DNA of 60,272 bases, from assembly GCA_018303325.1 (NCBI GenBank), contig JAGVYH010000004.1, positions 1 to 60,272 of the forward strand. The letters are read 5' to 3'. Under the pieces are notes generated by a model that searched no databases, was not told the origin of the DNA, and saw nothing but the letters and a program-made list of their open reading frames with translations. The translations under genes were made by a program, and so were the position numbers. Positions 15,737-42,118 of the stretch are shown here, piece by piece (positions within the stretch are counted from its first letter, which is position 1; each line of letters begins with the position of its first letter). This DNA is from Candidatus Woesearchaeota archaeon (GTDB taxonomy: Archaea > Nanobdellota > Nanobdellia > Woesearchaeales > DSVV01).

Positions 15737-15833
15737 ATATAGGCACGGACATTAATTATTGAGCATAAGATTCCGTGCCTATATGTTGCAAACACACTAA
15801 TTTTAGTGATAAGACTTTATGTGTTTGCAACAT
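15737..15833. repeat. Family-2 hairpin doublet
   Basis: ATATAGGCACGGA/TCCGTGCCTATAT and ATGTTGCAAACAC/GTGTTTGCAACAT stems with related AT-rich loops. Confidence 0.7.
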
Positions 15834-15946
15834 TGGTTCCTCCACTATAATTATACCTTCTGATATTATTTAATATTATCTTTTTCCATTAAGTATATAT
15901 TTCAGTTCATATATAATTATAAATGAACCAATAACCCTTTAATACT

Positions 15947-17776
15947 ATGAACTTAGTTAAATCCCGTGGTATAGTTAGACCCTATAGTAATTACTTTGTT
16001 TTTGATCCGGTTCAAGAGTTCTTAGTTTATTTAAGACATCGTGATACTGAAGTATTAAGGGAAGTAACACTTGGGTATAAAGAGAATGAACACTTTAGAA
16101 CGAAATTAGTTGCTTCAAATATTGGTAAAAAAAGAGATATGCAAGAGTTATTATTTCAACTTCAATTTCATGGTTTTGCAGGAAAGATAAACAATAATTT
16201 AAAATATAGCTTTAAAATTCCAAAAAAACGTTTGACTCAAAACGATATATTAAATAAAATCATAGTGGATGATGAAAAAACAATTAGATTAGCACATGAG
16301 ATTAAAGATGGTTTAGACCCAGAAAAAAGAGACAAGCCTGCTCATTTATTATACGCAATTAAACGATGGATGAGAAATATTTCATATAACCTTCTTGCAG
16401 ACCACAGTTCAGAAACAGTTCTTTCACTGAAAGAAGGAAATTCTGTAGGACAGTCAAGATTATTTTGTGCATTGGCAAGAACATTGGGGATACCGAGTGA
16501 AATGGTAATGGGTATAATGATAAATGAGAAGATGATTCCAAAATTATCTGATCATACACTTCATTATTCACATCAATATACACAGATCACTATTGACGAT
16601 TATTTTCATGATTTTACTTATAAATGTGATCAAGAGTTATATGGTAATTTTTGGGGTGATGTTGCATGGCAGCATGCCTTTACTTTATTTAAGTTAGCCA
16701 AAGAGAATAGATTAAACGCAACAAAACAATTATTGGCAGATAGAACAAATGAACTGGGATATCATGTTTGGGTAAGAGCTACATTACCACAAGGAATAAT
16801 ATTTTTAGATCCGACATTTGATTATATTAATTATTTGAGATATAAACAGTTATATGGTTATCCAATTTTTAGCGAAGGCAAATTTTCTGATGACTTGGCA
16901 CCAATTATACTTTCAAGTAATGATTATGTAAACAGCGATTTATTAAATGATTTAGACAATTTATTTAATGATTCACCATTAAGATATATACTAAGAATAA
17001 ATGAAGCCAAAAAGAGGATTAAATCATTAACAGCAAACAATGATAAATTAAACCGTGGTCATAAAACTAGAGCTTTGCCAGAAAAACCGTGGTGGACAGA
17101 TGAAACAAGATTAGAAGCATATGCTAAAGAAAACAGATGGGAAAATATGAGTGAATTAGAGCTACTTGCTAGTTTAAGAACGTATAATATTCCTGTTGAC
17201 GTTTATGAGTCTTACTCTGGAAGAGAGATTTCTTTTGAAAGTTTAGATAAATTCTGGATTGGGTTAAATGAGCCTAATAAAGATAATGTTGAAGTAATTG
17301 CATCAACAACAGATGAAACAAGTGCAACCGCAGATAACATTGGTAAAGAACATGTTGTTTATGAAAATAATGGTAAATTATTTTTGTCATATTCCAAGCT
17401 GCTTTATTTAGTTGCCGACGGTAAAGTTACTGAAGACGAAATGAGAAGGGGATTATTCTTTTTTGGTTGCCCTGTGCAATATTTTGAAGATACTGACAAT
17501 GATATAATTATAACCTCAATTAATTTAGCACAAACTGAAGAGGAAAAAACAAGATTTTTAGAGTCATATGATATTATGAAACGTGTTGTCAGCATTGCTT
17601 CGGCAGAAGGAAGAACTTATTTTAAAAGTAAAGAAGGCCATGTTTCAATTCGCGATTTAAACAGATTTTTAAAGAGAAATGGTGTTGATGTGTCAGCTGT
17701 GGGGTTTGGAAAGAAAAGGTTTAATTATCCTGATGTAAAAAGAGATTATAATTCTGTTGTTGATGTTGTATATTAA
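15947..17776 (+). CDS. Transglutaminase-like domain protein (Ser at the catalytic Cys position)
   Basis: GNSVGQSRLFCALARTLGIPSEMVMG, YHVWV and LDPT motifs. Confidence 0.7.
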   Translation: MNLVKSRGIVRPYSNYFVFDPVQEFLVYLRHRDTEVLREVTLGYKENEHFRTKLVASNIGKKRDMQELLFQLQFHGFAGKINNNLKYSFKIPKKRLTQNDILNKIIVDDEKTIRLAHEIKDGLDPEKRDKPAHLLYAIKRWMRNISYNLLADHSSETVLSLKEGNSVGQSRLFCALARTLGIPSEMVMGIMINEKMIPKLSDHTLHYSHQYTQITIDDYFHDFTYKCDQELYGNFWGDVAWQHAFTLFKLAKENRLNATKQLLADRTNELGYHVWVRATLPQGIIFLDPTFDYINYLRYKQLYGYPIFSEGKFSDDLAPIILSSNDYVNSDLLNDLDNLFNDSPLRYILRINEAKKRIKSLTANNDKLNRGHKTRALPEKPWWTDETRLEAYAKENRWENMSELELLASLRTYNIPVDVYESYSGREISFESLDKFWIGLNEPNKDNVEVIASTTDETSATADNIGKEHVVYENNGKLFLSYSKLLYLVADGKVTEDEMRRGLFFFGCPVQYFEDTDNDIIITSINLAQTEEEKTRFLESYDIMKRVVSIASAEGRTYFKSKEGHVSIRDLNRFLKRNGVDVSAVGFGKKRFNYPDVKRDYNSVVDVVY

Positions 17777-17831
17777 ATGATTTTGTGAGATTGTGCCAAC
17801 TACTTTATTTTGTAGAACACAGTAGTTGAGA

Positions 17832-18593
17832 TTATATACTAAATGACTTTGCGCTCTTCCAGAATTCTTCAAAATAAGCTTTGAAGGAGTCAGCAACCTG
17901 CTTGTTCACTATTTCAATTGCAAAGGACTCAGGATATTGCATCACAATCAGTGTTGTATCTTTGTAAACCATAAAGCATGCTGGAGACTTTATGTCAGCA
18001 TTCATTTCTCTTGCCTCGCAAAGCTTGAATGAATTCCTATTAGCGATAATCTTTTTATCTATGCCTTTATTGAAAAGCATCCTTGTAGAAATGCCTAATT
18101 TTGCTCTTCTTACATGATCCCTTTGCCAGTACAGGTGCTGTTCTTCTGGCTGATATGCAGGAACACCTAAATATACATATTCTTCTCCTTTTTTGAGCTT
18201 CTCATATGAATGTTCATGAGCAGTTCTTATTCCTTTGAAACCTACATAAAAATTTGCTTGGCTTTTTGGAGACATTTTCTGATGTAGAAGCAATTGCGGA
18301 AGCATCTTCTCTACCTTTTTTTTGTTTTCCAATAATCTGTGCTCTCTCTCGTCGATGTATTCAATTATCTTTTTAGGGTTAGATGCCTGAAAATATCTTG
18401 TTTTCTCCTTTGTGATGCAGCTGACAAGTGCTTTCTGCATGAGTTTGTCGAGAATATGATAAATAATAGATCTCGCAATATTTGACTTTTCTATTATTGG
18501 TCCCGAGGTTGACAGACCTAGCTCTAACAATGCTAGATATACTTTAATTTCTCCGTCAGTAAGTCCTGCTTCTTTGAGATAGCTTGTGTCCAT
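17832..18593 (-). CDS. TrmB-family transcriptional regulator
   Basis: GLTDGEIKVYLALLELG...ARSIIYHILDKLMQKALV HTH plus a PLD-like effector domain. Confidence 0.85.
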   Translation of the reverse strand: MDTSYLKEAGLTDGEIKVYLALLELGLSTSGPIIEKSNIARSIIYHILDKLMQKALVSCITKEKTRYFQASNPKKIIEYIDEREHRLLENKKKVEKMLPQLLLHQKMSPKSQANFYVGFKGIRTAHEHSYEKLKKGEEYVYLGVPAYQPEEQHLYWQRDHVRRAKLGISTRMLFNKGIDKKIIANRNSFKLCEAREMNADIKSPACFMVYKDTTLIVMQYPESFAIEIVNKQVADSFKAYFEEFWKSAKSFSI

Positions 18594-18600
18594 TTTGAAT

Positions 18601-18697
18601 GTAAGATGGTTAGATGGTTTGATGGTATGAAGGAACTACGGATGGCACAGCAGAACGTTACCATCAAACTATCTGACCTTCAAACCTTCTTACCTTC
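18601..18697. repeat. Octamer-repeat inverted element, copy 2 (in the leader of the TrmB gene)
   Basis: Colinear with 3520-3620, including the ACTACGRATGGMAC spacer and CGTTACCATCAAAC. Confidence 0.7.
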
Positions 18698-18815
18698 AAG
18701 CAGTTGTTATATTTAAATCTTTCTATTGCTATACCAGTAGTGGTGGGCAAATATTTATATAAAGATATTACTTTAAAGTAGTAATCGGTGATTATAAAAC
18801 ATAGAAGGCAACAAG

Positions 18816-19274
18816 ATGAAATGGAAAATAAAGATTTACAAGCAAAAAGTGATTAGAAACGCTATAGGAAGCAGTGATCTCCTCCTCAGCGGCTTCTACT
18901 TGAATTATCGCGGAGAGTTTGTTCATGAAGAAGATATAACAAGCGAATATTGTGTAGAATCCCGCAGTTCGGTTTTAGGAAAAAAGCATCGTGAGAACAA
19001 TATACTTGAAAATGCAAAGAAGAAAACACAGTTTGAAGAAGAAGTTAAATCAACAGTAGAAAGGTATACATTTGCTGATCAACATTGTCTTTATTTTATT
19101 AGATTATATTATGTCAATCCTAAACAAGGCAGTGTTTATGTTATGGATCATGAGTATTGTCCTTGGGCAAATGAAAATAGTCGGTTTTCACCATTGATTT
19201 TGGGTAATGTCAGTGAGATAGTACATGGTTTCAAAAAAGATGAAATAGAAATGATGATGAAGTATTTGGGGTAA
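18816..19274 (+). CDS. Hypothetical protein divergent from TrmB
   Basis: 152-aa ORF; palindromic ATTACT-N7-AGTAAT downstream of its TATA box. Confidence 0.55.
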   Translation: MKWKIKIYKQKVIRNAIGSSDLLLSGFYLNYRGEFVHEEDITSEYCVESRSSVLGKKHRENNILENAKKKTQFEEEVKSTVERYTFADQHCLYFIRLYYVNPKQGSVYVMDHEYCPWANENSRFSPLILGNVSEIVHGFKKDEIEMMMKYLG

Positions 19275-19312
19275 ACAGAATGAAAAAGATTGTAACTTAC
19301 TTAAACTTAATG

Positions 19313-19360
19313 TATACTAAAAGCACAAAATAATCGAACATTATTTTGTGCTTTTGTATA
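19313..19360. repeat. Family-1 single palindromic unit
   Basis: TATACTAAAAGCACAAAATAAT-CGAAC-ATTATTTTGTGCTTTTGTATA, 48 nt. Confidence 0.8.
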
Positions 19361-19429
19361 TTGATGATAATTATTGGAGAATTTTTCATTCCACAACCTT
19401 TAAATAATCATAATTTTATTACAAACCAA

Positions 19430-19849
19430 ATGCACGAACTAATCATCGCAAACAAAATAATCGAAGACATAAAAACCCAAATTTCTCTTAATAAAACAGC
19501 GACTAATAATAAAGCAACGAATAATAACAAACCAGCAACTAATAGCAAAACAGTGTCTAATAAAACAACATCTTTTGACAAAATTGTTTCTGTGTCTTTT
19601 GAAGTCGGTGATTTGGCGCATTTAAGCGCAGAGGAATTGGAAGAAACATTTAAATCAATGGTTAAGTTCAAGATTATTATAAAAAGAAAAAAAGCCATTG
19701 TTAAATGCAAATGCGGATTTAAGGGCGAGCCAAAAATATTAGAAAGGGGGCATCATTCGCTAATCTTTGTGTGCCCAAAATGCGAAGAGGTTCCTCAGAT
19801 TGTTGACGGTGAGGATATTAAGATAGTGGAGATTGAATTGATGGAGTGA
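19430..19849 (+). CDS. hypA: Hydrogenase maturation nickel metallochaperone HypA
   Basis: MHE N-terminus, CxC and CPKC zinc motifs, GEDIKIVEIELME end; low-complexity loop insertion. Confidence 0.9.
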   Translation: MHELIIANKIIEDIKTQISLNKTATNNKATNNNKPATNSKTVSNKTTSFDKIVSVSFEVGDLAHLSAEELEETFKSMVKFKIIIKRKKAIVKCKCGFKGEPKILERGHHSLIFVCPKCEEVPQIVDGEDIKIVEIELME

Positions 19850-19962
19850 TTAATCAATAAGTTTTTGTGGTTTTCTACAACCCTAAATTAGTATTCTTAT
19901 TAATCTTTCTTGATATTAATTATACCTTCTTTTTTACTTAATATGAAATAATTTGAAATGAA

Positions 19963-20073
19963 AAAAATGCCAACAATCTGCAACCTAAAGTTGCAGTATT
20001 GATTGTTGGTATTTTTAAATTCTTGACGAGCAGTGTTCGTCAAGTCTAATAATGCCGATGAAGTTGGCATTAT
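19963..20073. repeat. Cluster of three imperfect hairpins
   Basis: AAAAATGCCAACAATC/GATTGTTGGTATTTTT with inner TGCAAC/GTTGCA; CTTGACGA/TCGTCAAG; ATAATGCCGA/TTGGCATTAT. Confidence 0.55.
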
Positions 20074-20165
20074 AGTCAACTAATCTAATTTTTAGGATAA
20101 TTTTTATTGGTTGACTATTTATAGTAACTGACCTAAAATTTAGATTAATCATGTCAGTTACTATA
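20071..20165. repeat. Family-2 hairpin doublet
   Basis: ATAGTCAACTAAT/ATTGGTTGACTAT and TATAGTAACTGAC/GTCAGTTACTATA stems; loops begin CTAA(T/A)(T/A)TTT. Confidence 0.7.
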
Positions 20166-20271
20166 TTTTTATGAAAAAGGCTTCATCTGTAACCTGAACG
20201 TCATAGTATTCTGCCTTTTTCAAATAATTCTTAAAACTATTAAGCTGAAAATCAAAACATTTAAATAGTAA

Positions 20272-20291
20272 TTCATACATATATGTATGAA
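20272..20291 (+). promoter_or_regulatory. Perfect 20-bp palindrome, putative operator
   Basis: TTCATACATATATGTATGAA just downstream of TTTAAATA. Confidence 0.55.
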
Positions 20292-20304
20292 AAGGTGTAT
20301 AAAT

Positions 20305-20981
20305 ATGTATGAAAATAAACCAAAAAATCCGTTTAACACTAAAATAGATGAACTAGAACTATTTATACAATTAATTGCAGATTTAGATGAGGATATTGAG
20401 CTTTTTGCAATGGGTGGAACAGCAATGGTGATGAAAAATATTAAAGAAGTAACCAAAGACATTGATTTTTTAACAACATCTGATTATACTAACATAAATA
20501 AATTGTTTAAACTTGCCGGTCTGAAAGAAGAAAGCAATTCAAGATTATGCAACATTTGGCGGATGAATAAGACAAGAATTGACATTTTTTATGGCGCATT
20601 TATTTTAGGCACTGCTCTGCCGCAAGATTGGAAAGAGTTATCAGAGCATATATAGTAAGTGACGTAAATTTTTATACATATAGTGTCACTTACTATATTT
20701 GTCGGACATAACACTTTGTATAAATATTTATGTCCGACATTATAAGAACAGTAGGTAAAGTAAAATTGTACATATTAAACTGGTATGATATTATAATAAC
20801 GAAGATTGCAAGGTCAGAAGAAAGAGACATAGAGGATATTTTAAAAATACTTAAAACACAGAACATTGACTTTAAAAAACTAAAAAACAGGTATTACAAT
20901 GTTGCTCCCGTATCATTGATTGCTGATTTTAAGATGAAATTTAAATATTTAGAGTATAAAAGATATTTTGATAAAAGATGA
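20305..20981 (+). pseudogene. DUF6036-like nucleotidyltransferase split by a 92-bp insertion
   Basis: MGGTAM..TKDIDF in the 5' part and DIIITKIARSEERDIED in the 3' part. Removing 20653-20744 restores the frame ...ELSEHIRTVGKV... Confidence 0.85.
20649..20744. mobile_element. Family-2 hairpin doublet inserted with TATA duplication
   Basis: GAGCA-TATA-[ATAGTAAGTGAC/GTCACTTACTAT + TGTCGGACATAA/TTATGTCCGACA]-TATA-AGAACA. Confidence 0.85.
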
Positions 20982-21601
20982 TATCTGGAAAATTGATAAA
21001 AGAATTGGAAAAAGAAGGATTTATATTAGAATTTCCTAGTTATGAATTCAATGATGAAAAGATTATAGATATACTTAAGGAAGGAAATTTAAGATTAAAT
21101 CTTGCAATTCCTTTATTGTTGCGTTATGATTTTGATTATAATAATATCATAAAAAAATTAAAACAAAAAAAATTGAAAGATGAGTTCAATAAACTCATTC
21201 TGATTTCAAACAAAATATTCATATCTGAACATATAAATAATGCTCTGCTTAAGAATATAATTAGAAAAAATAAGATTACGGCCAAATTCAGTAAAAGTGA
21301 ATTAATGTATTATTATAACTCATTTAAAGAGTTCCAAAAAAACAAAGAGAAGAAAAAAGAAGAAGTTTTCGAAGAAAATCTTATTATGAGAGGAAAACTA
21401 AACACAAATAAAGCGTTATCAGAGATATTTTCTCCGGGGAAACAGAGGATTATGGATAAAATTTTTAATCACGAGCCATTAAGTAATACAGAGCTAAAGT
21501 ATTATTATCGATCAATTAAACCATTAATTTTGTCAATATTAAATGAGAATCTTAGGAAATATGTTAGAATAATTGAATCTACTAAAAAATACACTAAATA
21601 A
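20978..21601 (+). CDS. Hypothetical partner of the nucleotidyltransferase (putative antitoxin)
   Basis: ATGA overlap with the upstream gene; helical protein. Confidence 0.65.
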   Translation: MISGKLIKELEKEGFILEFPSYEFNDEKIIDILKEGNLRLNLAIPLLLRYDFDYNNIIKKLKQKKLKDEFNKLILISNKIFISEHINNALLKNIIRKNKITAKFSKSELMYYYNSFKEFQKNKEKKKEEVFEENLIMRGKLNTNKALSEIFSPGKQRIMDKIFNHEPLSNTELKYYYRSIKPLILSILNENLRKYVRIIESTKKYTK

Positions 21602-21608
21602 ATTTATA

Positions 21609-22067
21609 ATGAAAAATATCTACTGCTTCGGAAACCCTGACATCAAAGAAGATGCTGCTGCTTTAGAGCTAGCTGACGAGTTAAATAAAGATAAAAAGCT
21701 GAACAAAAGGTTTGAATTTGTGAAATGCACAAGCCCAGATTTTCTTCTGAATGAGAATATTAAGAATATTAAAGGCGAAATAATTATAATTGACGTCGTA
21801 AGGGGCATTAATAAAGTTAAAATAATTAATGATATAAACCTGCTCAAAGAAACAACCACATCAACTATGCATGACTTTGATTTGTGCACAGTGCTTAAAT
21901 TATTGAAAGAGATTGGAAAACTGAAGAAAGTGACAATAATCGGCGTCCCTTTCAATAGCACTTATAGCGACACTAAAAATCTAAATAATCGAAAGAATAT
22001 TAAAAAAGAAAACATTAAAAACGAAAGCATTAAAAAAGAAATTATCAACTATTTACTTTCTCTCTAA
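21609..22067 (+). CDS. Hydrogenase maturation protease-like protein
   Basis: IYCFGNPDIKEDAA, IIIIDVV and STMHDFDL motifs; adjacent to the large subunit gene. Confidence 0.8.
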   Translation: MKNIYCFGNPDIKEDAAALELADELNKDKKLNKRFEFVKCTSPDFLLNENIKNIKGEIIIIDVVRGINKVKIINDINLLKETTTSTMHDFDLCTVLKLLKEIGKLKKVTIIGVPFNSTYSDTKNLNNRKNIKKENIKNESIKKEIINYLLSL

Positions 22068-22087
22068 CCCTTCTTTAAATATTTTTT

Positions 22088-23413
22088 TTACCTTTTCTCT
22101 ATCTTCATCTCTAAGAAATGCGACGAGCAGCTGAAGCACGGGTCATAAGCCCTAATCAGCATTTCAACGTGCTTTTTAATTACTGATTCTGGCTTTGAAA
22201 GCAAAGATGGAAGCATTAATTTTAAATCTTCTTCCATTTGTTTAAGGTTTTGCGCAGTTGGTGTTATTATATTGGCTTTTATGCAGTGGCCATTCTCATC
22301 GTAAGTATAATCATGGAATAAAAGTCCTCTTGGCGCTTCTGTCACTGCAATTCCTCTTGCACTGCCTTCTGCAGTTTCTGCATTTCTTCTTCCATGTTTT
22401 ACATCAAAACTTACAGGTTTCTCGTCATGAACTTTTATTTTCTCCAGAATTTCTATGATTCTGTCAAATGAATGCACTAATTCTATTGCTTGGGCAAGAT
22501 TATTATGGAACGGATTCTTAACGTCAATTTTAGGCAGATATTTCTTTGCATCTTTTGACAAGGAATCGCCGTTTACCAGCAATCTTGCAAGCGCGCCGTT
22601 AAAGAATGGCTTATTTTTATACAGGACAACTTTTGCAGTTGATCCTTTTTTAAGATGCTCTTCAAAGATATTGTCATAGCTCTGCTCAGCGAAACAAATG
22701 CCGCCGACACAATTAATCTTTCCATGATAAAAAGAATGCGTCTTGTTTACCAGCCCAAATGCCTGTGTTTCCCTGCTGAATTTTGGATAAGTTAATTTTG
22801 AAAATAAGTCTGCTGTTGCAGCTGCATACTTTTTCATCTTCCTGAATTTTACCAATAATTCTTTTAATTTGTCCTGTTCTGGTATTTTTGAAAATCCACC
22901 AATTACAGCTGAAATAGGATGTATTTCTCTCCCGCCGACAACAGTTACCAATTCATTGCCTAATTTTTTAAGGCTTAATCCCATTAAAACCTCTTTTTTA
23001 TATTTCGAAGCCATTTCAATGGCGCTGTCATATCCGAAATAATCAGGAAGAACAAGCAAATAAAGATGCATAGCATGGTTTTGGATTATGGTGCCGTACA
23101 TTAATAAATCTCTCAATGTTTTTGTCTGCTCAGAAACCTTAATCTTGAAAGCATTTTCTGTTGCCAGCAGTGAAGTAATTGCATGAGATGGGCTGCATGT
23201 CCCGCAGATTCTCGACGTTAAAGGGCTGAGCTGGTCATATTTTCTGCAAAGGACAAGACTTTCAAAGAATCTCGCGCTTTCATAAACATCTAATTTAACT
23301 TTTTTCAGCTTGTTTTTTACAATTTGAATGGTTAGTTTAGCATGTCCTTCTATCTTGGTAATGTGATCTAATTTTATTGTCTTTGTTTTGCCTTTGTTAA
23401 TGTTTTTTGCCAT
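22088..23413 (-). CDS. [NiFe] hydrogenase large (alpha) subunit, group 3b-like
   Basis: ITKIEGHA; L1 SRICGTCSPSH; EAPRGLLFH; L2 YDPCFSCSSH with a cleavable tail. Confidence 0.95.
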   Translation of the reverse strand: MAKNINKGKTKTIKLDHITKIEGHAKLTIQIVKNKLKKVKLDVYESARFFESLVLCRKYDQLSPLTSRICGTCSPSHAITSLLATENAFKIKVSEQTKTLRDLLMYGTIIQNHAMHLYLLVLPDYFGYDSAIEMASKYKKEVLMGLSLKKLGNELVTVVGGREIHPISAVIGGFSKIPEQDKLKELLVKFRKMKKYAAATADLFSKLTYPKFSRETQAFGLVNKTHSFYHGKINCVGGICFAEQSYDNIFEEHLKKGSTAKVVLYKNKPFFNGALARLLVNGDSLSKDAKKYLPKIDVKNPFHNNLAQAIELVHSFDRIIEILEKIKVHDEKPVSFDVKHGRRNAETAEGSARGIAVTEAPRGLLFHDYTYDENGHCIKANIITPTAQNLKQMEEDLKLMLPSLLSKPESVIKKHVEMLIRAYDPCFSCSSHFLEMKIEKR

Positions 23414-23473
23414 GATAATCCTCTTTAATAGTTTAATTATTGATTATTAGTTTAATTCTTAATTATAGTTTAG

Positions 23474-24370: not shown

Positions 24371-24420
24371 TTTTGTTTTCTTATTATACTAAACAATCTT
24401 TGATTTATTCGTAAAATTCA

Positions 24421-28496: not shown

Positions 28497-28504
28497 CATA
28501 TGCT

Positions 28505-29289: not shown

Positions 29290-29362
29290 AATAGTTAGAA
29301 TGGATTAAATATTGATTTATATAGTTTTTGAGGAGAAATGAGTGAAGTTATTCGATTATTAT

Positions 29363-29534
29363 GAAAAATCCAGCCATGGCGGGCTACGAAGACAGAAATT
29401 TGGAGGCTTTTTCATATTTCTCTTCAAAAGCTGAACAAATTTCTGTCGGAGAGGGCAACCTTTTTGACATTCGACAAATTACTGACGAGGAGAAAAGTTG
29501 CCCGTAAGCCCTGCCATGAATGGCTGGAGGTTTC
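29363..29534 (-). ncRNA. Putative structured RNA/DNA element (three-way junction), copy 1
   Basis: Stems TCCAGCC/GGCTGGA, ATGGC/GCCAT, GGGCT/AGCCC, GGGCAAC/GTTGCCC and GACAGAAATTTG/CAAATTTCTGTC. Core shared with 37483-37602. Confidence 0.6.
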
Positions 29535-29608
29535 AATACTAAGAAATTAAAAAGCCCACATTATAAAGAAGAGATTTATTTATTTTTAGTTATTATCTAT
29601 TTATTTAA

Positions 29609-29884
29609 CTACTCAACATAAAACATCGCATCAGTTATCCATTCGCTTCTGCATTTTGGGCATTTTGTTGGTGTTCTGAATTTTGTCCTTTCTTTGAATA
29701 CAAAATGACACTGTTTGCATTGGCTGGGTATCCTTTTTAGTTTTCTTGGCCGAATAGATACTTGAATGTGCTCTAAATCTTCTTCAATCTCAAAAAGCTC
29801 AACCTTGAAATAGCCTGCTATCTGATACAATGACATTTGTCCATGTTCAAGCATTTGTATAATCTCTTGTCGTCTTGTTGGCAT
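29609..29884 (-). CDS. Archaeal HTH plus Zn-ribbon transcriptional regulator
   Basis: TRRQEIIQML HTH; CKQC...CPKCRSEWI. Confidence 0.85.
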   Translation of the reverse strand: MPTRRQEIIQMLEHGQMSLYQIAGYFKVELFEIEEDLEHIQVSIRPRKLKRIPSQCKQCHFVFKERTKFRTPTKCPKCRSEWITDAMFYVE

Positions 29885-29906
29885 TGCAACCTCAGATTTT
29901 ATGGAA

Positions 29907-30003
29907 TATAGAGAGCTTTGAAAAACTCTTTTTTATGATATTTTTCAAAGCGGTTCTATTAAGGGTTTTGACTATTTGGATAGGTTATTCAAAACCCTCT
30001 ATA
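29907..30003. repeat. Hairpin doublet with TATAGAG/CTCTATA ends
   Basis: GCTTTGAAAAA/TTTTTCAAAGC and AGGGTTTTGA/TCAAAACCCT. Confidence 0.55.
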
Positions 30004-30086
30004 CAATAATTGAATTTCTTTAACTAATGTTCTGTTTCTTAGTATTTTTATTCCGCTCAAAATCCGTTTGTGGAACGCAGTCCCCC

Positions 30087-30134
30087 ATGTAGGCACGGAC
30101 ACTAATTTTTGTATATTCATTTCCGTGCATACAT
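30087..30134. repeat. Family-2 hairpin unit
   Basis: ATGTAGGCACGGA/TCCGTGCATACAT; same stem core as 15737. Confidence 0.7.
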
Positions 30135-30345
30135 ACGTGGACTTTATTTTAAATTTAACAAACTCATATTATAGGTTAAATTTATAATCTTGCAGACTAA
30201 ATACTACATGATATCAATTATTCATTTATTCTGCAATAACTAAATTAATACAGATATTAAAGTCCACAGCTATCTTATGAAAAGTTTAAGTTTTTTCGAA
30301 GAGTTTATTAAAAAATTAAATTTCGAAAAACAAACTAAATCATCA

Positions 30346-30377
30346 TCATGAGATGGGTGGCTTCGCCCAGGAACTAA
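30346..30377 (+). repeat. Short repeat family 3, copy 2
   Basis: TCATGAGATGGGTGGCTTCGCCCAGGAACTAA. Confidence 0.55.
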
Positions 30378-33410: not shown

Positions 33411-33688
33411 ACATTAACATGACTAAAAGAAGTGTGTGAACCTGAATCAAAAGAATAAGTATCATCTGAAGAAAATATGCTCTGTTGTTTTTCTTGAGCT
33501 GAGATTATTGTTTTTTGTAAATGCGCAACAACCTCGTTATCTGTTGGCTCCCTATATCTCATAAGTAGAAGTACATTTGAAAGAACTATTCCACCACCCA
33601 TATTACCTAACACTGCAGGCATACGTTTCGGTTTACTATAAACTTCATTAGGTATAAGCGAAGTGTAGCCAGGTATATTAATTATCAT
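33386..33688 (-). CDS. Hypothetical protein
   Basis: 100-aa ORF overlapping the next gene by 25 nt. Confidence 0.35.
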   Translation of the reverse strand: MIINIPGYTSLIPNEVYSKPKRMPAVLGNMGGGIVLSNVLLLMRYREPTDNEVVAHLQKTIISAQEKQQSIFSSDDTYSFDSGSHTSFSHVNVWLILIMC

Positions 33689-33861
33689 ATATAATTGCGC
33701 CCCCTATCTGTTCTTCTATAAATACACTTATCTAATAGTATATCATTTGGGGTGAGAATGGTCTATTTTTAAATCTTTTGGGTTGCAAACTGCTGTTTTT
33801 CAATTTGGTTCTGTTTGAAACACTGCATATCATATTCTTTAAGTTTATTGTCGTCTCTTCT

Positions 33862-33881
33862 ACTACAACGCCATTTTATAT
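33862..33881 (+). promoter_or_regulatory. ACTACAAC-N5-TTTATAT promoter motif, copy 1
   Basis: Same motif and spacing at 36796 and 43538. Confidence 0.7.
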
Positions 33882-34033
33882 AGAAAAAACGAGTATATCT
33901 TATTGAAATTTCCGAAATTGAAGATGATTTACTAATAAAACTGTTTATAATTATTTATTCCTAAACAGAAAATCTAAACAGAAAACTTAAACAGAAATTA
34001 ATGGTGTCAGAAATGATTACAGAGGTTTTAATA

Positions 34034-35476: not shown

Positions 35477-35519
35477 TTCTTTTTCATAAATTTAATATTA
35501 TTTGCACTACCAATATTTA

Positions 35520-36569
35520 CTAATTCAATACTTGGTTTAAAACTTTGTAAACATTTGCTTTGCCTATGTTACAGTCTCCATCTAATTTTGCCTTGAATCT
35601 TTTTGATTCATCATATTCATGCTTACGTAGATAATAATTACGTGCCTTAGTAAATAATGCTCTCCAATAAGTTTCGTCTGCCTCTACCATTTCATCTTCG
35701 TTAACAGCAGTAGAGATCCTACGTCCTTTCCAATCTAAAGCTAAGGTAAACTTAGTTTCCGAACCAGTATAATACGCCTCACGGACATAAGGTCCGCTTC
35801 TCCACTCTTTAAATCTGTCTATAATCATATCAAACAAATGGGACTCTGAAGTAAATACTGATGAAGTATCGCTTGTTATGTGAGCCACTCTAGCAGCATT
35901 ACCTAAACAATCAGCTTTTTTATAATATTCAATTGCTCTTTTGAAATCTTTTCTTTTTTCAGCAATATTTGCAGCCCATCTTGAAGGAACTTCTTTTTCA
36001 CAAGCTTGAACAATTATTTTATAAAATTTATCTGCAGTTTCAGTATCCCCCATCTCATCAGCGGTGTCATAAATCTCAAATAAGCAAGGGCTCCCCGGAC
36101 AATGTTTTTCATAGTCAATAATCGCTTTTTTAAGCGCTAAATCATAAAATCTTTTAGTTCTTCCAGTGTTGCCACTTTCTTTTGATATTCTTGCGCATCT
36201 TAAATAACCATAAAAAGTATCCAAATGCTTATGATAGCTAATTGCTTTATCATAATCTTTGAGTAATAATGCTAAGTCTGCAGCACAAGGAAGGTCACCA
36301 GAATCATGTGAATCTTCACAACTCTTTTCAAAATGTCGCATACCTTCTTCGCAGATTCTTCTTGTTCTATCCATATCACCTAATTCTAGCGCTGTTTCTG
36401 CTGCAAATTTAAATTTTGGAGATTGAAAACCTTGTGGTTTGAGAGAAACATCAATCGCTCTTTCTAACATACCTAATTCTTTAAACATTTGCGCAGCAGA
36501 AATATATTCGCCTTTACTTTCTAAATCAACTGCTGTTTCTAATGTTGGTGCTGGTTTTTGCTTATCCAT
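35520..36569 (-). CDS. TPR-like helical repeat protein
   Basis: Repeats such as AAQMFKELGMLERAI, DYDKAISY and DFKRAIEYYKKA. Confidence 0.65.
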   Translation of the reverse strand: MDKQKPAPTLETAVDLESKGEYISAAQMFKELGMLERAIDVSLKPQGFQSPKFKFAAETALELGDMDRTRRICEEGMRHFEKSCEDSHDSGDLPCAADLALLLKDYDKAISYHKHLDTFYGYLRCARISKESGNTGRTKRFYDLALKKAIIDYEKHCPGSPCLFEIYDTADEMGDTETADKFYKIIVQACEKEVPSRWAANIAEKRKDFKRAIEYYKKADCLGNAARVAHITSDTSSVFTSESHLFDMIIDRFKEWRSGPYVREAYYTGSETKFTLALDWKGRRISTAVNEDEMVEADETYWRALFTKARNYYLRKHEYDESKRFKAKLDGDCNIGKANVYKVLNQVLN

Positions 36570-36795
36570 TTTAGTAATACACTTTTCATAACATGATTTT
36601 TCTTTACAACATAATTATTTTCTGGATTATATCTTTTCACAAAGGAATGAAACTGACTTTATAAATTTTTGTGTCACTATTATATCATAAGTAAAATAAA
36701 TCCGCATTTTTTATTTATACAATACTCCTAATTTGAAATCGAACATATAATAATTTTCGTTTTCTTCCTGTTTTTTCCGAAATGACGTGGCAAAG

Positions 36796-36815
36796 ACTAC
36801 AACTTAAGTTTATAT
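36796..36815 (+). promoter_or_regulatory. ACTACAAC-N5-TTTATAT promoter motif, copy 2
   Basis: ACTACAAC TTAAG TTTATAT. Confidence 0.7.
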
Positions 36816-36886
36816 CTACCATGTGTCTATCTATGTTCTAATTCGAGTGATTTATCATAATAATTTATCCCAGTAATTTATACACA

Positions 36887-36958
36887 GAGCAACTGAGTGC
36901 GGTTAGGGATTACAGTGTGTTACATTGAATGTAAACTGCACTTGTTGCTCAAATCCTA
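36887..36958 (+). other. Structured 5' leader candidate
   Basis: GAGCAAC/GTTGCTC and GAGTGCGGTT/AACTGCACTT stems with G-U pairs on the + strand. Confidence 0.45.
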
Positions 36959-37038
36959 CTCAAAAATATGCAACAAAAATTAAGTTGAGATTGAAATTAC
37001 AATCACAATCAGATTAAAATTATAACGAGGTTAAAACA

Positions 37039-37440
37039 ATGGTGCAATCAACAGCAGACAATTATCGCCGACAAACATCTGGTGATTCCACTCTTGGAAA
37101 TTTTATGAACGGTGTAGGCAAGATTGGCTTAATGACGTTTTTATCTTATGTTACAAGGGCAGGAAGGTGTGTACCTATTCCTTATGATGTTAATGTAACA
37201 AATCCTATTTCTCCAAGTATTGCTATCGGCGCTGGTTTTGTCGCCGGTATCAGCGATACAAATAATCTTGAGGCAAAGGTTGCAGGTGTTTTAGGCGGCC
37301 TTGCATCATTGGCGCCCGATGTTTACGACGCTGCAACAACAGGAGATTTGAAAAGAGCAGGCACAATGGCAGGAACAAAGGTTGCTTTGTACCTTGGCAG
37401 TTATCTTGTGGGATATGTTGCGAATAGATTGTTCAAATAG
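37039..37440 (+). CDS. Small Gly/Ala-rich membrane protein
   Basis: Hydrophobic small-residue helices; GAGG SD-like site upstream. Confidence 0.65.
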   Translation: MVQSTADNYRRQTSGDSTLGNFMNGVGKIGLMTFLSYVTRAGRCVPIPYDVNVTNPISPSIAIGAGFVAGISDTNNLEAKVAGVLGGLASLAPDVYDAATTGDLKRAGTMAGTKVALYLGSYLVGYVANRLFK

Positions 37441-37482
37441 TTAGAAAATCATAAATTTGTGTTAACTGATATGAAGTAGGGG

Positions 37483-37602
37483 TGGAAAAACCCAACAACA
37501 AAAATGGCGGCAGACGGTCAAAATCTGCGGATTTTGCCCTATGCGACACCCCGAAGGGGGCGACCCCCGTCGCATCTGCGCCATTGTTGTTGGGTTTTTC
37601 TA
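37483..37602 (+). ncRNA. Putative structured RNA/DNA element (three-way junction), copy 2
   Basis: GAAAAACCCAACAAC/GTTGTTGGGTTTTTC, ATGGC/GCCAT, GCAGA/TCTGC, CAAAATC/GATTTTG and TGCGAC/GTCGCA. Confidence 0.6.
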
Positions 37603-37659
37603 AATAGAATATGATTATAATAAAACATAAATAAAAATTAAGAAACAGTAAGGGTGATT

Positions 37660-38181
37660 ATGATGGGATTTATAGGAAGTGTTTTAAAAACAGGATTAGT
37701 GCTTTACGTCGCTGCTATGGGCATAAGAGGGTGCCAAGTAGTAAGAAGCAGCGAGGCAGAAAAACTAACTGCGTTATATGAATCTGTTGCTTATATCGGC
37801 AAAAAAACAATGAAGGAGCATCCTGAGTATATTGCAGAGCTTGAGACCTCAGGAATGAAAACCAAACAGGATGTGGAAAATTTACAAGATATGGTTGATG
37901 CTTATAAAACAGATTCAACATTAATATGGGCAGGCATATTTTGGAGTGAAGCGAAAAGCAGAGAATATAGCAAATCAATAGTAAATCTTGCCAAAGAAGC
38001 AGTAAAAAGGCATCCAGAATATTTTCTTTTCAGCGCATTGTCTGACGCAACAATGGGTGAGGCAATGGAAACAGTGATAAGATTAGCGCCGAATTATGAA
38101 AAAACAAGGGATAAATTGGAATGTAAGGTTGACAGGATTTTTGTGCCTTGGGCTAATTGCAGTTACGGCATGCCAAGATAA
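37660..38181 (+). CDS. Hypothetical membrane-anchored protein
   Basis: N-terminal hydrophobic segment ending in RGC. Confidence 0.65.
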   Translation: MMGFIGSVLKTGLVLYVAAMGIRGCQVVRSSEAEKLTALYESVAYIGKKTMKEHPEYIAELETSGMKTKQDVENLQDMVDAYKTDSTLIWAGIFWSEAKSREYSKSIVNLAKEAVKRHPEYFLFSALSDATMGEAMETVIRLAPNYEKTRDKLECKVDRIFVPWANCSYGMPR

Positions 38182-38284
38182 TCTAACAAGACAACCGAAC
38201 AAGAGTTTTAACGCTGCCAACAGAAAGAAAACATAGAAACAGAACACAGAAAGAAAAAAACTATATAAACAGGAGTGAATTACC

Positions 38285-39490
38285 ATGACAACTATGCAAA
38301 GAACAAATACAAGATTAATAAAACTGCCGTCATTATTAATTCCAGCTGTAAACTATACTGGAGACAGCGATAGTGCAGAAGAGCTGAATGTAAAAGCGTA
38401 TGATTATGTGAGAAGAACTGCTGTTCCTACATTAGAAGATTATGTAATAACCACATTTGGAGATGCTCTTAAGGAGAAGACATTTAATGAAGCTGTGCAG
38501 AAATATGGTGTTGATGCAAAGGGTATATTATTAAGCAGGCATGTAACTGAAGAAATTATTGGAGCAAGAAAATATGTTGTGGATGTTTTCTCGACTACAA
38601 GGATACAATATGAAACTGTCTTTTCATTTATTCAAGAATTCTTGGAAAAAATAAATGTTGATAATTTAGAAACAATAAGAAAAGACTGCATTAAAAAGGT
38701 TGATGACGAGCCGCATATTTTTATTGAATATCTTTTGGAAGAAATAGCTAGACAGTGCAATAATAATTCAACAACATTTAATAAAAAGGATTTAGAAGTG
38801 CAGGAAAAAGGATTAAATAAAGAAGGCTTAGAAGTATATAAAAAAGCAGCATTGGATGATAATATCACTGAAATGCTTGTGGCTCTTGACATGACAAAGC
38901 TTGCACAGATTAATGAAAAGAATGCAGACGAATTTCATAAAGCAAGAAGTTTAAAGGCAAAATTAGAGGCATTTAAAAGAGAGTTTGAAGCAGGATTAAT
39001 GAGCAGGTATGGCATTAATCCAAATGGTATTGATGAGCAGGCCGAATTTGATTATGAATTAAGTGATGGCACGGGTGTAAGATACTTATTTTTCAAAAAG
39101 ATATCATTGCCTTATGGTGATGTTTATGGTGGATTGGTAACAAAAAACACAGTTAGAGAAAAAACAAAAAGTGTTACAAAAGATTATGGTGATTTAGATC
39201 TTGTAAAAGACTTTGCATTTAAGAATCCTTACCAAGCTATGAAAGCAGGAGTTGGTATTCAAGTAAGGACAGATATGAATGGAAGCCAAAAAGGAACATT
39301 AGTAATCGGCAGATTCTCAAAAAGCGGCTCTGAAGAAAGAGATTATAAAGTATTTGATAACGAAAGCAAAGTTTATGTAAGTGTTAATGATGTTATAGCA
39401 ACTATTGAAAAACTTAAAAAAGATTATACTTCAGTATCAACAGAGCAAAAGATTGACTTCTTCGCTGCATTGCCGCAGCATTTGAGATAA
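38285..39490 (+). CDS. Hypothetical protein
   Basis: 401-aa ORF with AGGAGTGA SD-like site. Confidence 0.7.
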   Translation: MTTMQRTNTRLIKLPSLLIPAVNYTGDSDSAEELNVKAYDYVRRTAVPTLEDYVITTFGDALKEKTFNEAVQKYGVDAKGILLSRHVTEEIIGARKYVVDVFSTTRIQYETVFSFIQEFLEKINVDNLETIRKDCIKKVDDEPHIFIEYLLEEIARQCNNNSTTFNKKDLEVQEKGLNKEGLEVYKKAALDDNITEMLVALDMTKLAQINEKNADEFHKARSLKAKLEAFKREFEAGLMSRYGINPNGIDEQAEFDYELSDGTGVRYLFFKKISLPYGDVYGGLVTKNTVREKTKSVTKDYGDLDLVKDFAFKNPYQAMKAGVGIQVRTDMNGSQKGTLVIGRFSKSGSEERDYKVFDNESKVYVSVNDVIATIEKLKKDYTSVSTEQKIDFFAALPQHLR

Positions 39491-39654
39491 TAATGCCTTC
39501 TTTCTTGCTTTTTGTATTTGTTTTTATTTAGTTCTTGGCATGTCCAACAAAGTTCATGAAGAAAGTTAATAATTTATTATAATTCTGTGCTGTTAATAGC
39601 TTACGATAAAATAATTAGATAATAATTGATAATAACTTAGATAATAATTAAAAT

Positions 39655-39687
39655 TCATGAGACGGTGGACTTCGTCCTAGGAACTAA
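39655..39687 (+). repeat. Short repeat family 3, copy 3
   Basis: TCATGAGACGGTGGACTTCGTCCTAGGAACTAA. Confidence 0.55.
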
Positions 39688-39707
39688 AAAACTACGAAAA
39701 CTATAAC

Positions 39708-40325
39708 TCAAACAATTTTATCAGTCAATTCTTCCAATACTTTTGCGTTAAGCCTTTGATTAAATATTCTTTCGAATTTATCATTTAGCCAGTGCAGATG
39801 TTCTCTTGCAGCTTTTTCAAATTGAGATTTCTGATGTGTTTCACTTTCTTGTCCAACAAGCGCATTGTAAACTGCTTCAATACAAAAGTTATAAGCAACG
39901 CCGCAGATAGAATTGCTTTCTTGTTGCATACCTTCTACTTCTCGTTTTGTATTTTGTCTTGTACCTTGTTTCGCATCAAATTGTAGTCCTTCTGTTGCTT
40001 TTTGTTCAGTATTTTGTTTTGTATATTGTTTTGCTTCAAGCAATAATTCTTTTGTTACAATTGCTTGTTTCCATATTCCGCCTCTAGACCATGGTATATA
40101 CACCATTGATGGAAGATATTCTCTTATCTTTTCAAAAACAGTGTATTGAGAACCAACATAACCTTTTCCTTCTAGATAATAAACCATATCCTGTTGCAGG
40201 ATAGATACTTCTATTCTTTGCGCAATTTTTTCAAGTAATTCTTTAGATGCAGTTATTTCTTCTGGAGTATGTACTCTTTTTTCAAGAAGCAATGATTCGA
40301 GATGAATGACGATGAGAGAGTTCAT
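39708..40325 (-). CDS. Possible divergent isochorismatase/cysteine-hydrolase-fold protein
   Basis: SLIVIH at the N-terminus and ICGVAYNFCI resemble family motifs; low-complexity insertion. Confidence 0.45.
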   Translation of the reverse strand: MNSLIVIHLESLLLEKRVHTPEEITASKELLEKIAQRIEVSILQQDMVYYLEGKGYVGSQYTVFEKIREYLPSMVYIPWSRGGIWKQAIVTKELLLEAKQYTKQNTEQKATEGLQFDAKQGTRQNTKREVEGMQQESNSICGVAYNFCIEAVYNALVGQESETHQKSQFEKAAREHLHWLNDKFERIFNQRLNAKVLEELTDKIV

Positions 40326-40359
40326 TTTGAGAATTTCCTACTCAATTTATTTTTTGTGT

Positions 40360-41079
40360 TTACTTCGCAGACTCCCATAGAATATTGAAATAATTTTTAT
40401 ATGATTCAGATAATAGCTTGTTTTTTATTTGGATTGTCATCACTGGAGAAATCCATGCTACAATTACCACTTCATCGCCGCAAATAACAGTTGAAACCTT
40501 TGAATCAAATCTCTGGGGCAATGATTTTGCTTTTGTATAAGACATTTTATTAAGAAAGTCTATTCTTTCTGTAGCATCATGATTATAAATATGCCACATA
40601 GGTATCTTCATAGGAATCCTTTTTTTGTGAAAATGAGGTATAAGAGTTTTCATTAAAATCGGCGCTTCTTTTGGTATGCCGTAAACAAGAATTGGCTCTT
40701 TGTAATTTAAAAGGCTGTATAAAAGATCCACGAATGCTTTTAATCCTTGAAATATATGCGATTCGCTTTTATTTTCTGACATTTGCAATTTTAATAAAAG
40801 CTCAGGAAGAACAGTTGTTAATTTATCTTCTTTTTCCTGAAGCAGCCTGAAAAGATTTTGCGGTGGTGTTGCCTGAAAATATTTTACATCAGAAATCATA
40901 GTGTATGAAACAACGCCTCTTTCGAGCATTCTTTCTAGTGCATCATATACATTTGTTCTGTGAACCTTGGATTTTTCAGCTACTTGACCTGCTGTTGCTG
41001 AGCCTAATTCAAGCAATGCCAGGTATGCCTTTGCTTCATTTTTGCTAAAACCAAGATCTTCTAATACTTCTTCATGCAT
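40360..41079 (-). CDS. TrmB-family transcriptional regulator
   Basis: LGFSKNEAKAYLALLELGSATAGQVAEKSKVHRTNVYDALERM. Confidence 0.88.
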   Translation of the reverse strand: MHEEVLEDLGFSKNEAKAYLALLELGSATAGQVAEKSKVHRTNVYDALERMLERGVVSYTMISDVKYFQATPPQNLFRLLQEKEDKLTTVLPELLLKLQMSENKSESHIFQGLKAFVDLLYSLLNYKEPILVYGIPKEAPILMKTLIPHFHKKRIPMKIPMWHIYNHDATERIDFLNKMSYTKAKSLPQRFDSKVSTVICGDEVVIVAWISPVMTIQIKNKLLSESYKNYFNILWESAK

Positions 41080-41254
41080 TAAGCATCCCCACAATACTGA
41101 CTACCCAATATCCAATTTATATCTATAAATAGATAGTATGATTGTTTGATTTATAAATTTTATCTGTATAGTAGTGAAAATGTATGTTTTTCCTTTGAAA
41201 AACAAACTAACTGTTTAATAAGATTTTAATATAGAATCCTCTTTCTATATTACA

Positions 41255-42064
41255 ATGGCAGAATTTAAGACTAAACAAGGCATGAAGATATCTGTTTCAT
41301 TTAAGCAGGGAAACCACACAAAAAAACCCTTTGTGTTTATTCATGGCAATGCGCAGAATGACACTTCTGGCAAAGTTTTGATGGATGCTTTTTATAAAAA
41401 AGGCCATACTGTTCTTTCATACGATCTTCCAGGGCATGGTGACTCTGAATCTTACTCAGATACTTATCCAGATGACAAAGTTACAATGGATACATTTGCT
41501 GAAACATTAAATGAAATCCTTTCACATTTTAAGATTGACAAGCCAATAATTGCAGGCCATTCTATGGGTGGCATGATTTTACTTGAGTTTGGGGTGAGAT
41601 ACCCTGAAAAAGTTGGTGCGCTTATACTAATAGATACTTCTGACATAAGTCCTGTAGATGCAAACAAGCAAATTCCATTGAAGGATATTATTAATAATAT
41701 AATTGAAAATTGTGGCAAGGCATTTGAAAAAAGATTCAAGTATGATTATTATACCAGCACCGAGATAAATGAAGAAAATATTTTAGGAGTTGGTTTTAAA
41801 TCTACTGATCCTGTTTCATTACAACTTAATTTTAAGGCAACATTTAATTATGATGTCACTAAAAAACTCTCACTTCTGAATATGCCTATTCTTATATTGA
41901 GAGGCAAGGATGACCCGCTTATGACAAAAGAAATGACAGAAAATATGCATAAGAGAATTCCTCATTCAAAATTTGTGGAAGTTGAAGGCGGTCATAATTG
42001 GTTTTTATTTAATAAGAAGCTGGCAAAGGAGATATTAGAGAAGAATTATGGATTGTTTGAATGA
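41255..42064 (+). CDS. Alpha/beta hydrolase
   Basis: FIHG, YDLPGHGDS, GHSMGG nucleophile elbow, GKDD and GGH. Confidence 0.9.
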   Translation: MAEFKTKQGMKISVSFKQGNHTKKPFVFIHGNAQNDTSGKVLMDAFYKKGHTVLSYDLPGHGDSESYSDTYPDDKVTMDTFAETLNEILSHFKIDKPIIAGHSMGGMILLEFGVRYPEKVGALILIDTSDISPVDANKQIPLKDIINNIIENCGKAFEKRFKYDYYTSTEINEENILGVGFKSTDPVSLQLNFKATFNYDVTKKLSLLNMPILILRGKDDPLMTKEMTENMHKRIPHSKFVEVEGGHNWFLFNKKLAKEILEKNYGLFE

Positions 42065-42070
42065 AGAAGC

Positions 42071-42118
42071 ATAGTAACGAGCTTGTATATTTTTGTGTAA
42101 GTTGTGCCACTTACTATA
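42071..42118. repeat. Degenerate family-2 unit
   Basis: ATAGTAA...CACTTACTATA matches the stem at 20652-20697. Confidence 0.45.

Follow-up and report, generated by a model that had tools for sequence, protein, structure and literature searches.

Paired hairpins in a Woesearchaeota genome are probably modules of miniature transposons derived from IS630-family insertion sequences

A 60,272-nucleotide stretch of DNA from a Candidatus Woesearchaeota archaeon (contig JAGVYH010000004.1 of assembly GCA_018303325.1; hereafter the window) carries short hairpins whose stems differ from one unit to the next. What are these hairpins, and what, if anything, moves them? An earlier note on this DNA, made from the sequence alone, had set eight of them apart as 'family 2' and proposed that they are recognised by structure rather than by sequence, possibly as an undescribed archaeal repeat or cassette system. 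[quoted passage not shown] Their anatomy, copy number, TA flanks, filled and empty insertion sites, a gene that one of them disrupts and the likeness of their ends to IS630 ends can be observed directly in the genomes, and an IS630-type transposase is the candidate enzyme for their movement. The window is contig C73 of assembly G000 (1.97 Mb, 78 contigs, 33% G+C).

All eight units are present in the sequence, at coordinates that had been off by 1–2 nt at most. The sizes given for them held in part: six of the eight have stems of 12–15 bp and loops of 16–23 nt, whereas unit 20700–20739 measures 40 nt, not 46–51 nt (stem 12 bp, loop 16 nt). The pairing proposed for the unit at 42071 yields no fold (z = −0.9; 40 of 200 shuffled sequences were equally good). 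This unit aligns to the one at 20651 with a score of 19, compared to a maximum of 8 for shuffled sequences (0 of 1000 reached 19), and is therefore a decayed copy. When folded as single-stranded DNA (ssDNA), the doublets 20651–20744 and 15738–15849 each form two hairpins (z = −6.5 and −7.9, respectively, with 0 of 200 shuffles as good), and the single units at 20120 and 30088 have z values of −5.5 and −5.3. The excess over composition-matched sequence, a check that the earlier note had suggested, is real: when perfect stems of ≥12 bp are counted (≥3 G/C, spacer of 12–40 nt), the window holds 10, ~80-fold more than the average of 0.12 in 50 second-order Markov simulations (never more than 1), and by the same criteria the whole of G000 holds 328 against 4–11 in 5 simulations. 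A looser hairpin scan gave 567 against 202 in one simulated run.

A genome-wide palindrome search of G000 recovered 385 non-overlapping hairpins in clusters of at least 3 copies, distributed over 250 loci, with 154 loci single, 75 double and 21 carrying 3–6 hairpins in a row. 'Family 2' resolves into two related types with ~190 copies in G000, found in both orientations and with at least ten stem variants within this one genome. Type I is 46–48 nt long (TATAG plus 8 nt, a ~21-nt loop and a closing CTATA) with a 13-bp stem, and comprises 97 copies (clusters 2, 3, 8 and 22; variants A/G 41, E 35, C 16 and F 5). Type II is ~40 nt long with a 12–13-bp stem and a 13–17-nt loop, and comprises 93 copies (clusters 5, 1, 15, 13, 30, 27 and 29; D 45, B 26 and five small clusters). 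Conservation of the loop persisted in a larger sample: when distinct type I copies of the window and of the sister genome G001 were aligned (45 in all), T15, A17, T19, T22 and A26 are at least 90% conserved. That the units usually occur as abutting pairs was borne out, and the rule is stricter than had been supposed, as the type of the partner and its relative orientation are both fixed: the order is E then D in 21 cases, A then B in 19 and C then D in 6, never in another relative orientation, and with a gap of 0–3 nt. Fifteen type I copies have no detected partner; in most of them it is interrupted or degenerate, and the hairpin at 20120 is the only clearly partnerless copy in G000. The unit is the doublet, usually 88–93 nt long, in which a type I and then a type II hairpin, usually separated by 2–3 nt, form the two ends of one element.

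The stems differ and yet pair, as had been claimed. Among the 45 aligned type I copies, 97.1% of cells are paired, both sides change in 8 of 13 pairs, and the covariation score is 0.545 compared to 0.139 for shuffled alignments (0 of 500 shuffles reach it), in a test that is partly circular because the 45 sequences had been picked for being paired. A less circular search, with the left arm and loop start only, found 26 copies paired at 11–12 of 12 positions and chance matches paired at 5–8, with a few decayed or truncated copies falling between the two groups. Close subfamilies differ from each other at single, compensated stem positions.

The ends of the doublet have the features of transposon termini. 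In doublet alignments conservation stops between TA and TAG... on the left and between ...YTA and TA on the right. Judged from the alignment listing with flanks, TA stands on both sides of 38 of 46 doublets (A+B 19/19, C+D 6/6 and E+D 13/21). The outer arm and the first loop bases together make up a terminal inverted repeat (TIR) of ~20 bp per end, TAGt....GAC.T.AAT. In the copy on C24 the left end of E (TAGTCACGGACATTAATAAT) and the reverse complement of the right end of D (TAGTGGCGGACTTTAATATT) are equal at 16 of 20 positions; the corresponding figures are 13/20 for A with B and 11/20 for C with D. Recognition by structure rather than sequence could not be upheld, since the units are not independent of each other and their ends keep this sequence motif, like the repeats of the IS630 family.

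With respect to genes, 366 of the 385 hairpins are intergenic, although open reading frames (ORFs) of at least 90 aa cover 81% of G000 as mapped by an ORF heuristic made for this analysis. This placement fits selfish DNA excluded from genes. By a crude count over six genomes, the pattern TATAG-N..-CTATA is in excess only in G000 (96 vs. 39 in the control) and in G001 (78 vs. 23), which belongs to the same genus, and the four other relatives lack such an excess. Within the species collection, the commonest hairpin has exact copies only in a Candidatus Woesearchaeota metagenome-assembled genome (MAG), and three further archaeal MAGs (L207, L223 and L234) hold doublets of the same design with yet other stems.

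We compared the 200-nt flanks of every array in both directions between G000 and G001 (140 contigs, 1.17 Mb of ~1.4 Mb). For twelve arrays with type I/II elements, a precise empty site exists in the sister genome, and a simple TA duplication distinguishes the filled from the empty site in 7 of the 12 pairs (Table 1). For instance, on C24 of G000 the sequence at the filled site is catt[TA]TAGTCAC...CCGCCACTA[TA]atctg, compared to catt[TA]atctg at the unoccupied site in G001. A block of four hairpins (E, F, cluster 15 and D) at L121:1772-1955 is present or absent as a whole, with one TA duplication; here an F+15 pair sits within an E+D doublet, at its internal TATA junction, and therefore arrays grow by nested TA insertion. 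Furthermore, different loci share copies that are 98–100% identical over 72–75 nt, which, together with the many sites that differ between the two species, argues for recent activity. A region between conserved genes also varies in length between the species: it spans 999 nt in the window (29352–30350), with an extra small ORF and five hairpins, and 308 nt in G001 (L026:3000-3307), with different hairpins.

One insertion has broken a gene. Two hairpin sites in the window adjoin or sit inside genes for DUF6036 nucleotidyltransferases, and at one of them an A+B doublet splits the gene (Table 1). The C-terminal part matches positions 86–161 of the 164-position DUF6036 Pfam profile (E = 3.3e-10), and the N-terminal part matches positions 6–62 weakly and below the cut-off (E = 0.0087). 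The element plus one TA amounts to 92 nt, and the reading frame of the gene is therefore shifted. An intact paralogue lies 5 kb upstream, at 14929–15621. The two DUF6036 genes belong to paralogous pairs: in one, at 14237–15621, an HTH_11 protein precedes DUF6036, and in the other, at 20287–21601, a 207-aa protein without a Pfam match comes after the split gene.

How would such elements move? An IS630-type transposase, with two helix-turn-helix (HTH) domains and a DDE_3 catalytic domain, would bind the ~20-bp ends in trans, excise the element and insert it at a TA that becomes duplicated; internal and flanking TA sites would let later copies enter or adjoin earlier ones, which would give rise to mosaic arrays. 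Public collections were searched with a degenerate form of the doublet end. A 1125-bp element on a metagenome contig (L262:1337-2461) has TA on both sides and starts TAGTGGCGGACTTTAAT; its other end, in reverse complement, reads TAGCTAAAGACTTAAAT, with conserved (TAG, GAC, T.AAT) and variable positions as in the MITE ends. It codes for HTH_32/HTH_33/HTH_23 matches (best E = 3e-11) and, in another frame, for DDE_3 (E = 1.6e-13), a make-up that, judging by these predicted domains, is that of an IS630-family insertion sequence. Four further flanks, each different, precede its left end elsewhere (L289, L290, L295 and the diverged L286), and IS copies of this type sit on 1–4-kb contigs that end in the IS. 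Another complete IS630-type element, L299:1447-2504, is found in genome G100 of the same order; it is flanked by TA, has the ends TAGTCACCGACATAAGTA and TAGTCTAAGACATAAATA, and its left end matches that of E at 16 of 20 positions. The MITE ends agree with the L262 and L299 ends at 9–17 of 20 positions, compared to 2–7 of 20 for two unrelated IS ends of G000 and G001. In L262 the HTH and DDE domains are encoded in different, overlapping frames after eight consecutive As (1386–2458), and L299 is alike at a T/A run, a layout that suggests programmed frameshifting.

DDE_3 genes related to that of L262 are distant and were detected in 9 of 151 genomes from this order; no close relative of the L262 transposase was detected in the species genomes, and the protein was not found in G000. 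G100 has only 3 further end-pattern matches and no large MITE family. The scan of the genome collection returned 61 stretches, about half of them single matches in unrelated bacteria, which by our own estimate is about what chance would give; two matches in Methanosarcinales have no transposase alongside, and among viral contigs there were 3 matches, none of them a hairpin. A TIR script applied to 12 loci proposed TIR candidates at 7 of them but not the pair of L262 itself; only the pairs at L297 and L299 resemble MITE ends, that at L298 is unrelated and the others are ambiguous. Long elements with hairpin arms were not found, the arms being nearly always paired within 70 nt. As for other enzymes, DDE_Tnp_4 and mariner families were not found in G000 or G001, where the mariner blank (PF01359) is uninformative because the profile matched no control genome either, and TnpB (PF07282) was not found in G000. 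A DDE_Tnp_1 IS, present once each in G000 and G001, was rejected as a parent because its ends are unrelated to the MITE ends. On C21 of G000 an IS with a 450-aa DDE_Tnp_1 transposase (L199:1369-2944) has ends GAATTATGGGACAGC..., and a motif similar to these ends, GCCGTCCCACAATTC, occurs near L001:620-640 beside an IS200 copy.

Several observations weigh against derivation from an IS630-family element. DDE_3 (PF13358) was not found in G000 (92% complete), in G001 (76% complete) or in three other MITE-bearing MAGs (G162, G163 and G164), and G000 holds no IS-length repeat. The metagenome contig that carries L262 has a G+C content of 47%; L262 was, moreover, found by the end pattern itself, so that 17 of its 20 matching positions were built in. 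A five-copy E+D subfamily is flanked by TG..TC instead of TA, and among the 12 filled/empty pairs 5 (C12:6679, C47:13617, L092, L093 and L172) are imperfect, their TA-rich flanks differing by 1–2 nt or the dinucleotide not being TA. Finally, binding of double-stranded ends explains neither the perfectly complementary inner arm at each end nor the compensated single-position stem differences between close subfamilies, and the autonomous elements L262 and L299 are without such inner arms. Not built into the search that found L262 were the location of the match precisely at an IS terminus, the TA flanks and the agreeing second end, and L299 is an independent IS from the same order whose ends agree too. 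The absence of DDE_3 is weighed lightly because binned assemblies often lose multi-copy ISs and because there is a precedent in Sulfolobus, where the MITE SM3A is described as persisting in strains without a functional ISC1058 transposase (PMC3718332); the absence still stands.

Stem covariation is real and is explained only in part. The stem variants may stem from founders that differed at the variable end positions, which are exactly those at which the IS ends vary. Template switching in replication is known to turn near-palindromes into perfect ones, and by this route the ends could have been corrected with no need for a fold. It is possible, if doubtful, that each end must instead fold, as ssDNA or as a cruciform, for the excision, copying or amplification of an IS630-derived MITE. 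Such a requirement would explain the perfect inner arms that are missing in the parents and the many compensated stem variants, as well as ~100 copies of 90-nt elements without a visible transposase gene; the enzyme might then come from another replicon or from a consortium cell.

Could the elements be TA-targeting MITEs that a different, unrecognised enzyme moves, or else immobile fossils? The lack of DDE_3 in all five element-bearing genomes speaks for this, as do the Correia elements of Neisseria, which have TA termini and for which the available text of PMC2229807 reports no IS with matching ends. However, the ends of the MITEs match IS630-family ends from the same order, and neither the near-identity of copies at different loci nor the many sites at which the two species differ is what fossils would lead one to expect. 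We regard this explanation as quite unlikely.

A Y1 (HUH) transposase that recognises ssDNA hairpins and moves them, as in REP/REPIN-like or IS200/IS605-derived repeats, is a very unlikely source. The hairpins are perfect and co-vary, their doublets and mosaic arrays resemble REP/BIME and REPINs, and each of G000 and G001 has one full Y1_Tnp gene, the kind of co-occurring HUH enzyme that the earlier note had advised looking for. These two genes (G000:C5:827-1303 and G001:C4:1079-1540), however, turned out to be ordinary IS200 with short G+C-rich hairpins of their own (GGGGTT..AACCCC in G000 and CCCAGCAC-TTTA-GTGCTGGG in G001). TATAG hairpins flank neither gene, and the two are unalike as DNA though the repeats are common to both genomes; furthermore, 10 of 21 relatives possess Y1_Tnp, some of them from genera in which the hairpin pattern is not in excess. 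The ends of IS200/IS605 elements are asymmetric, and these elements insert 3' of a 4–5-nt target without a target duplication, whereas the doublet ends are inverted, TA is duplicated and TA alone is conserved in the flanks, and the stems reach the very ends of the element rather than lying subterminally.

The stable folds and the conserved, asymmetric loop start might also mark structured RNA or regulatory hairpins under host selection, such as terminators, RNA-stability elements or small RNA genes, and NEMIS/Correia transcripts are described as RNase III substrates (PMC2229807). We find this highly improbable, as no Rfam family matches the hairpins at gathering score (the sole match in the window is a tRNA at 11394–11504), convergent or 3' intergenic regions are not preferred (the intergenic class is unbiased, with 26 ++, 28 --, 16 +- and 16 -+, and orientation relative to genes is 18 to 10), orthologous sites vary in presence between the sister species and one copy breaks a gene. 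The chance that the hairpins are attC-like recombination sites of a cassette system with a tyrosine recombinase is negligible: their sequence is variable and their fold conserved, and tyrosine recombinase genes (PF00589) are present in both genomes, but PF00589 also matches 14 of 14 control genomes and is thus uninformative, and the elements occupy 250 dispersed loci without gene-plus-site arrays, are inserted with TA duplication and carry no gene. Of the undescribed archaeal repeat first suggested, what remains is a repeat that is real, mobile and co-varying and has no account for this lineage in the literature searched; the cassette system is not supported. This is ordinary transposon biology and not a new recombination system.

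MITEs of IS630/Tc1-mariner type include the plant Stowaway elements. Among bacterial repeats the closest likeness is to RUP of Streptococcus pneumoniae, which is linked to IS630-Spn1 and is, as here, short, non-coding, multi-copy and mostly intergenic, with IS630-like TIRs, TA duplication and mobilisation in trans; PMC2229807 treats it as established that bacteria and archaea have small MITEs with TIRs and TA termini and, in the text available, presents similarity to TIRs or ISs as not looked for or not found for bacterial repeats other than RUP. Unlike RUP and other IS630 MITEs, each end here is a perfect 12–13-bp hairpin, giving a double hairpin of ~90 nt, and there are at least 10 stem variants per genome, nested arrays and no transposase in the same assemblies.

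The Correia repeat likewise begins TATAG. Correia/NEMIS elements are ~100–155 bp long, with TIRs, 5'-TA-3' termini, target duplication and transcripts that fold into hairpins (PMC2229807). They differ in being bacterial, in forming one long hairpin from two TIRs and in carrying an IHF site, and here a plausible parent IS family is identified. The Sulfolobus MITEs (SM3A with ISC1058, SMN1 with ISC1733) are likewise archaeal and use a transposase in trans, but they are 164 and 320 bp long and belong to other IS families, and no double-hairpin design is reported in the accessible part of PMC3718332. A comparison with ISC1048, as an IS630 element with the MITE SM1, was dropped because the single paper that turned up treats ISC1048 as an IS607 element. 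REP/BIME and REPIN-RAYT systems consist of short palindromic units with doublets and mosaic arrays in intergenic DNA. Unlike in these, no RAYT-like Y1 gene is flanked by the repeats here, and the ends are inverted and TA duplicated. Rickettsia palindromic elements (RPE) are listed with open reading frames (PMC2229807), and a single case here is similar: a putative gene on C71 of G000, a 224-aa ORF at 13542–14213 on the minus strand, stays open in frame across an E+D doublet that would add ~30 residues. A search of G001 for an orthologue of its host gene found none, and only other MITE copies matched the doublet piece.

Table 1. Hairpin elements and associated features of the window, and site pairs with a simple TA duplication (G000 against G001).
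Feature	Position	Strand	Details
Truncated E-type left end	1007..1033	-	TATAGTCACTGACATTAATAATC.., no right arm
tRNA, 111 nt	11394..11504	-	Rfam match, intron probable; ARAGORN reports no window tRNA
Composite element	15738..15849	+	TA 15738-39; type I hairpin E2 15738-15783, arms TATAGGCACGGA..TCCGTGCCTATA; F-type hairpin 15783-15833, starts ATGTTGCAAACACA..; right half of type II hairpin plus terminus ..GTTCCTCCACTA 15834-15847 (ends ..CCACTA, then TA); TA 15848-49
Type I-like hairpin	20071..20118	+	different stem, TATAGTCAACTAAT..ATTGGTTGACTAT; clustered with no other copy
Lone type I hairpin	20120..20165	+	TATAGTAACTGAC..GTCAGTTACTATA; z -5.5
DUF6036 nucleotidyltransferase gene split by A+B doublet	20287..20981	+	N part 20287-20655; C part 20730-20981
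A+B doublet	20651..20744	+	TA 20651-52; element 20653-20742, terminus ..GACATTA; TA 20743-44; type I 20651-20697, type II 20700-20739; one of 19 TA-flanked A+B copies
E+D doublet	30088..30274	+	degenerate termini, TG then TAGGCACGG ... GTCCACAGCTA then TC; type I hairpin 30087-30134
Decayed lone A-type copy	42070..42118	+	right arm intact, left arm with indels, no type II partner
TA-duplication pairs	C24:7089 vs L135; C49:14634 vs L089; C3:1642 vs L059; C56:818 vs L059; L066:6343 vs C15; L121:1772 vs C25; L121:2675 vs C25		

Two of the elements in the window have altered type II partners. The loop of E2 in the composite element recurs at G000:C30:4986-5074 with an intact cluster-13 type II hairpin behind it. 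In the E+D doublet at 30088, which belongs to a subfamily of which five sister copies carry identical flanks, the arms of the D hairpin lie at ~30137–30147 and ~30256–30266, and its loop is interrupted by a 92-nt insertion (30145–30236) that bears a hairpin of its own at 30146–30188. Comparable insertions, of the TTTCAGATTAAATG.. hairpin (cluster 9), are found at GTATA in the loops of B hairpins at G000:C5:~2555 and C24:~39836-39886. Eighteen sequencing runs are listed as containing the stretch, none of them RNA. Comparing assembled contigs, not raw reads, those from four runs stop at hairpins and none spans 20653–20744; a contig of run X10 joins 30144 to 30237, and it may derive from another, intact D copy.

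The window also contains other multi-copy hairpin families, at 29915–29951, 29962–29998, 45–97 and 19963–20016 (clusters 14, 7, 17 and 20). Clusters 7 and 14, or 7 and 11, likewise form fixed doublets, 5 or 10 nt apart, and cluster 17 hairpins lie at the window's beginning and ~40 nt into contig C29. Elsewhere in the genome a GGTGCTR-heptad hairpin family is built around a CGATAATTCATCG core (cluster 0; 74 raw matches, 32 merged; e.g. C29:4141-4220 and C60:31543-31622). Its arms contain GGTGCTGGG, like the CCCAGCAC..GTGCTGGG hairpins at the IS200 of G001 (L197:956-978 and 1527-1550), and cluster 0 could be a palindrome family related to IS200. At L001:1-295 on C5 of G000, a 93-nt unit stands in three tandem copies within an ORF at the contig start, where it encodes repeated ..LSALGLKDDKIASHAHLLGMNPETIERNYQR.. 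segments, and a similar stretch is present on C54.

IS630 elements and MITEs are known in archaea (PMC13343696), and we found no account in the literature searched that links Woesearchaeota with miniature inverted-repeat elements. In a census of 8220 archaeal genomes, one of the three with the most MITEs is given as 'a Woesearchaea genome' (PMC11602168), and the supplementary table of that census may already list this family. The novelty lies in the MITE family as such, in its double-hairpin design, in the candidate parent IS and in the way copies nest into arrays. Derivation of the hairpins from IS630-family elements would explain why these genomes contain hundreds of perfect hairpins and why contigs break at them. 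It would help annotation, as split genes such as that for the DUF6036 protein become recognisable, and it would help assembly too. A DPANN lineage would thereby gain a defined MITE family, with its ends, its target and a candidate parent IS family.

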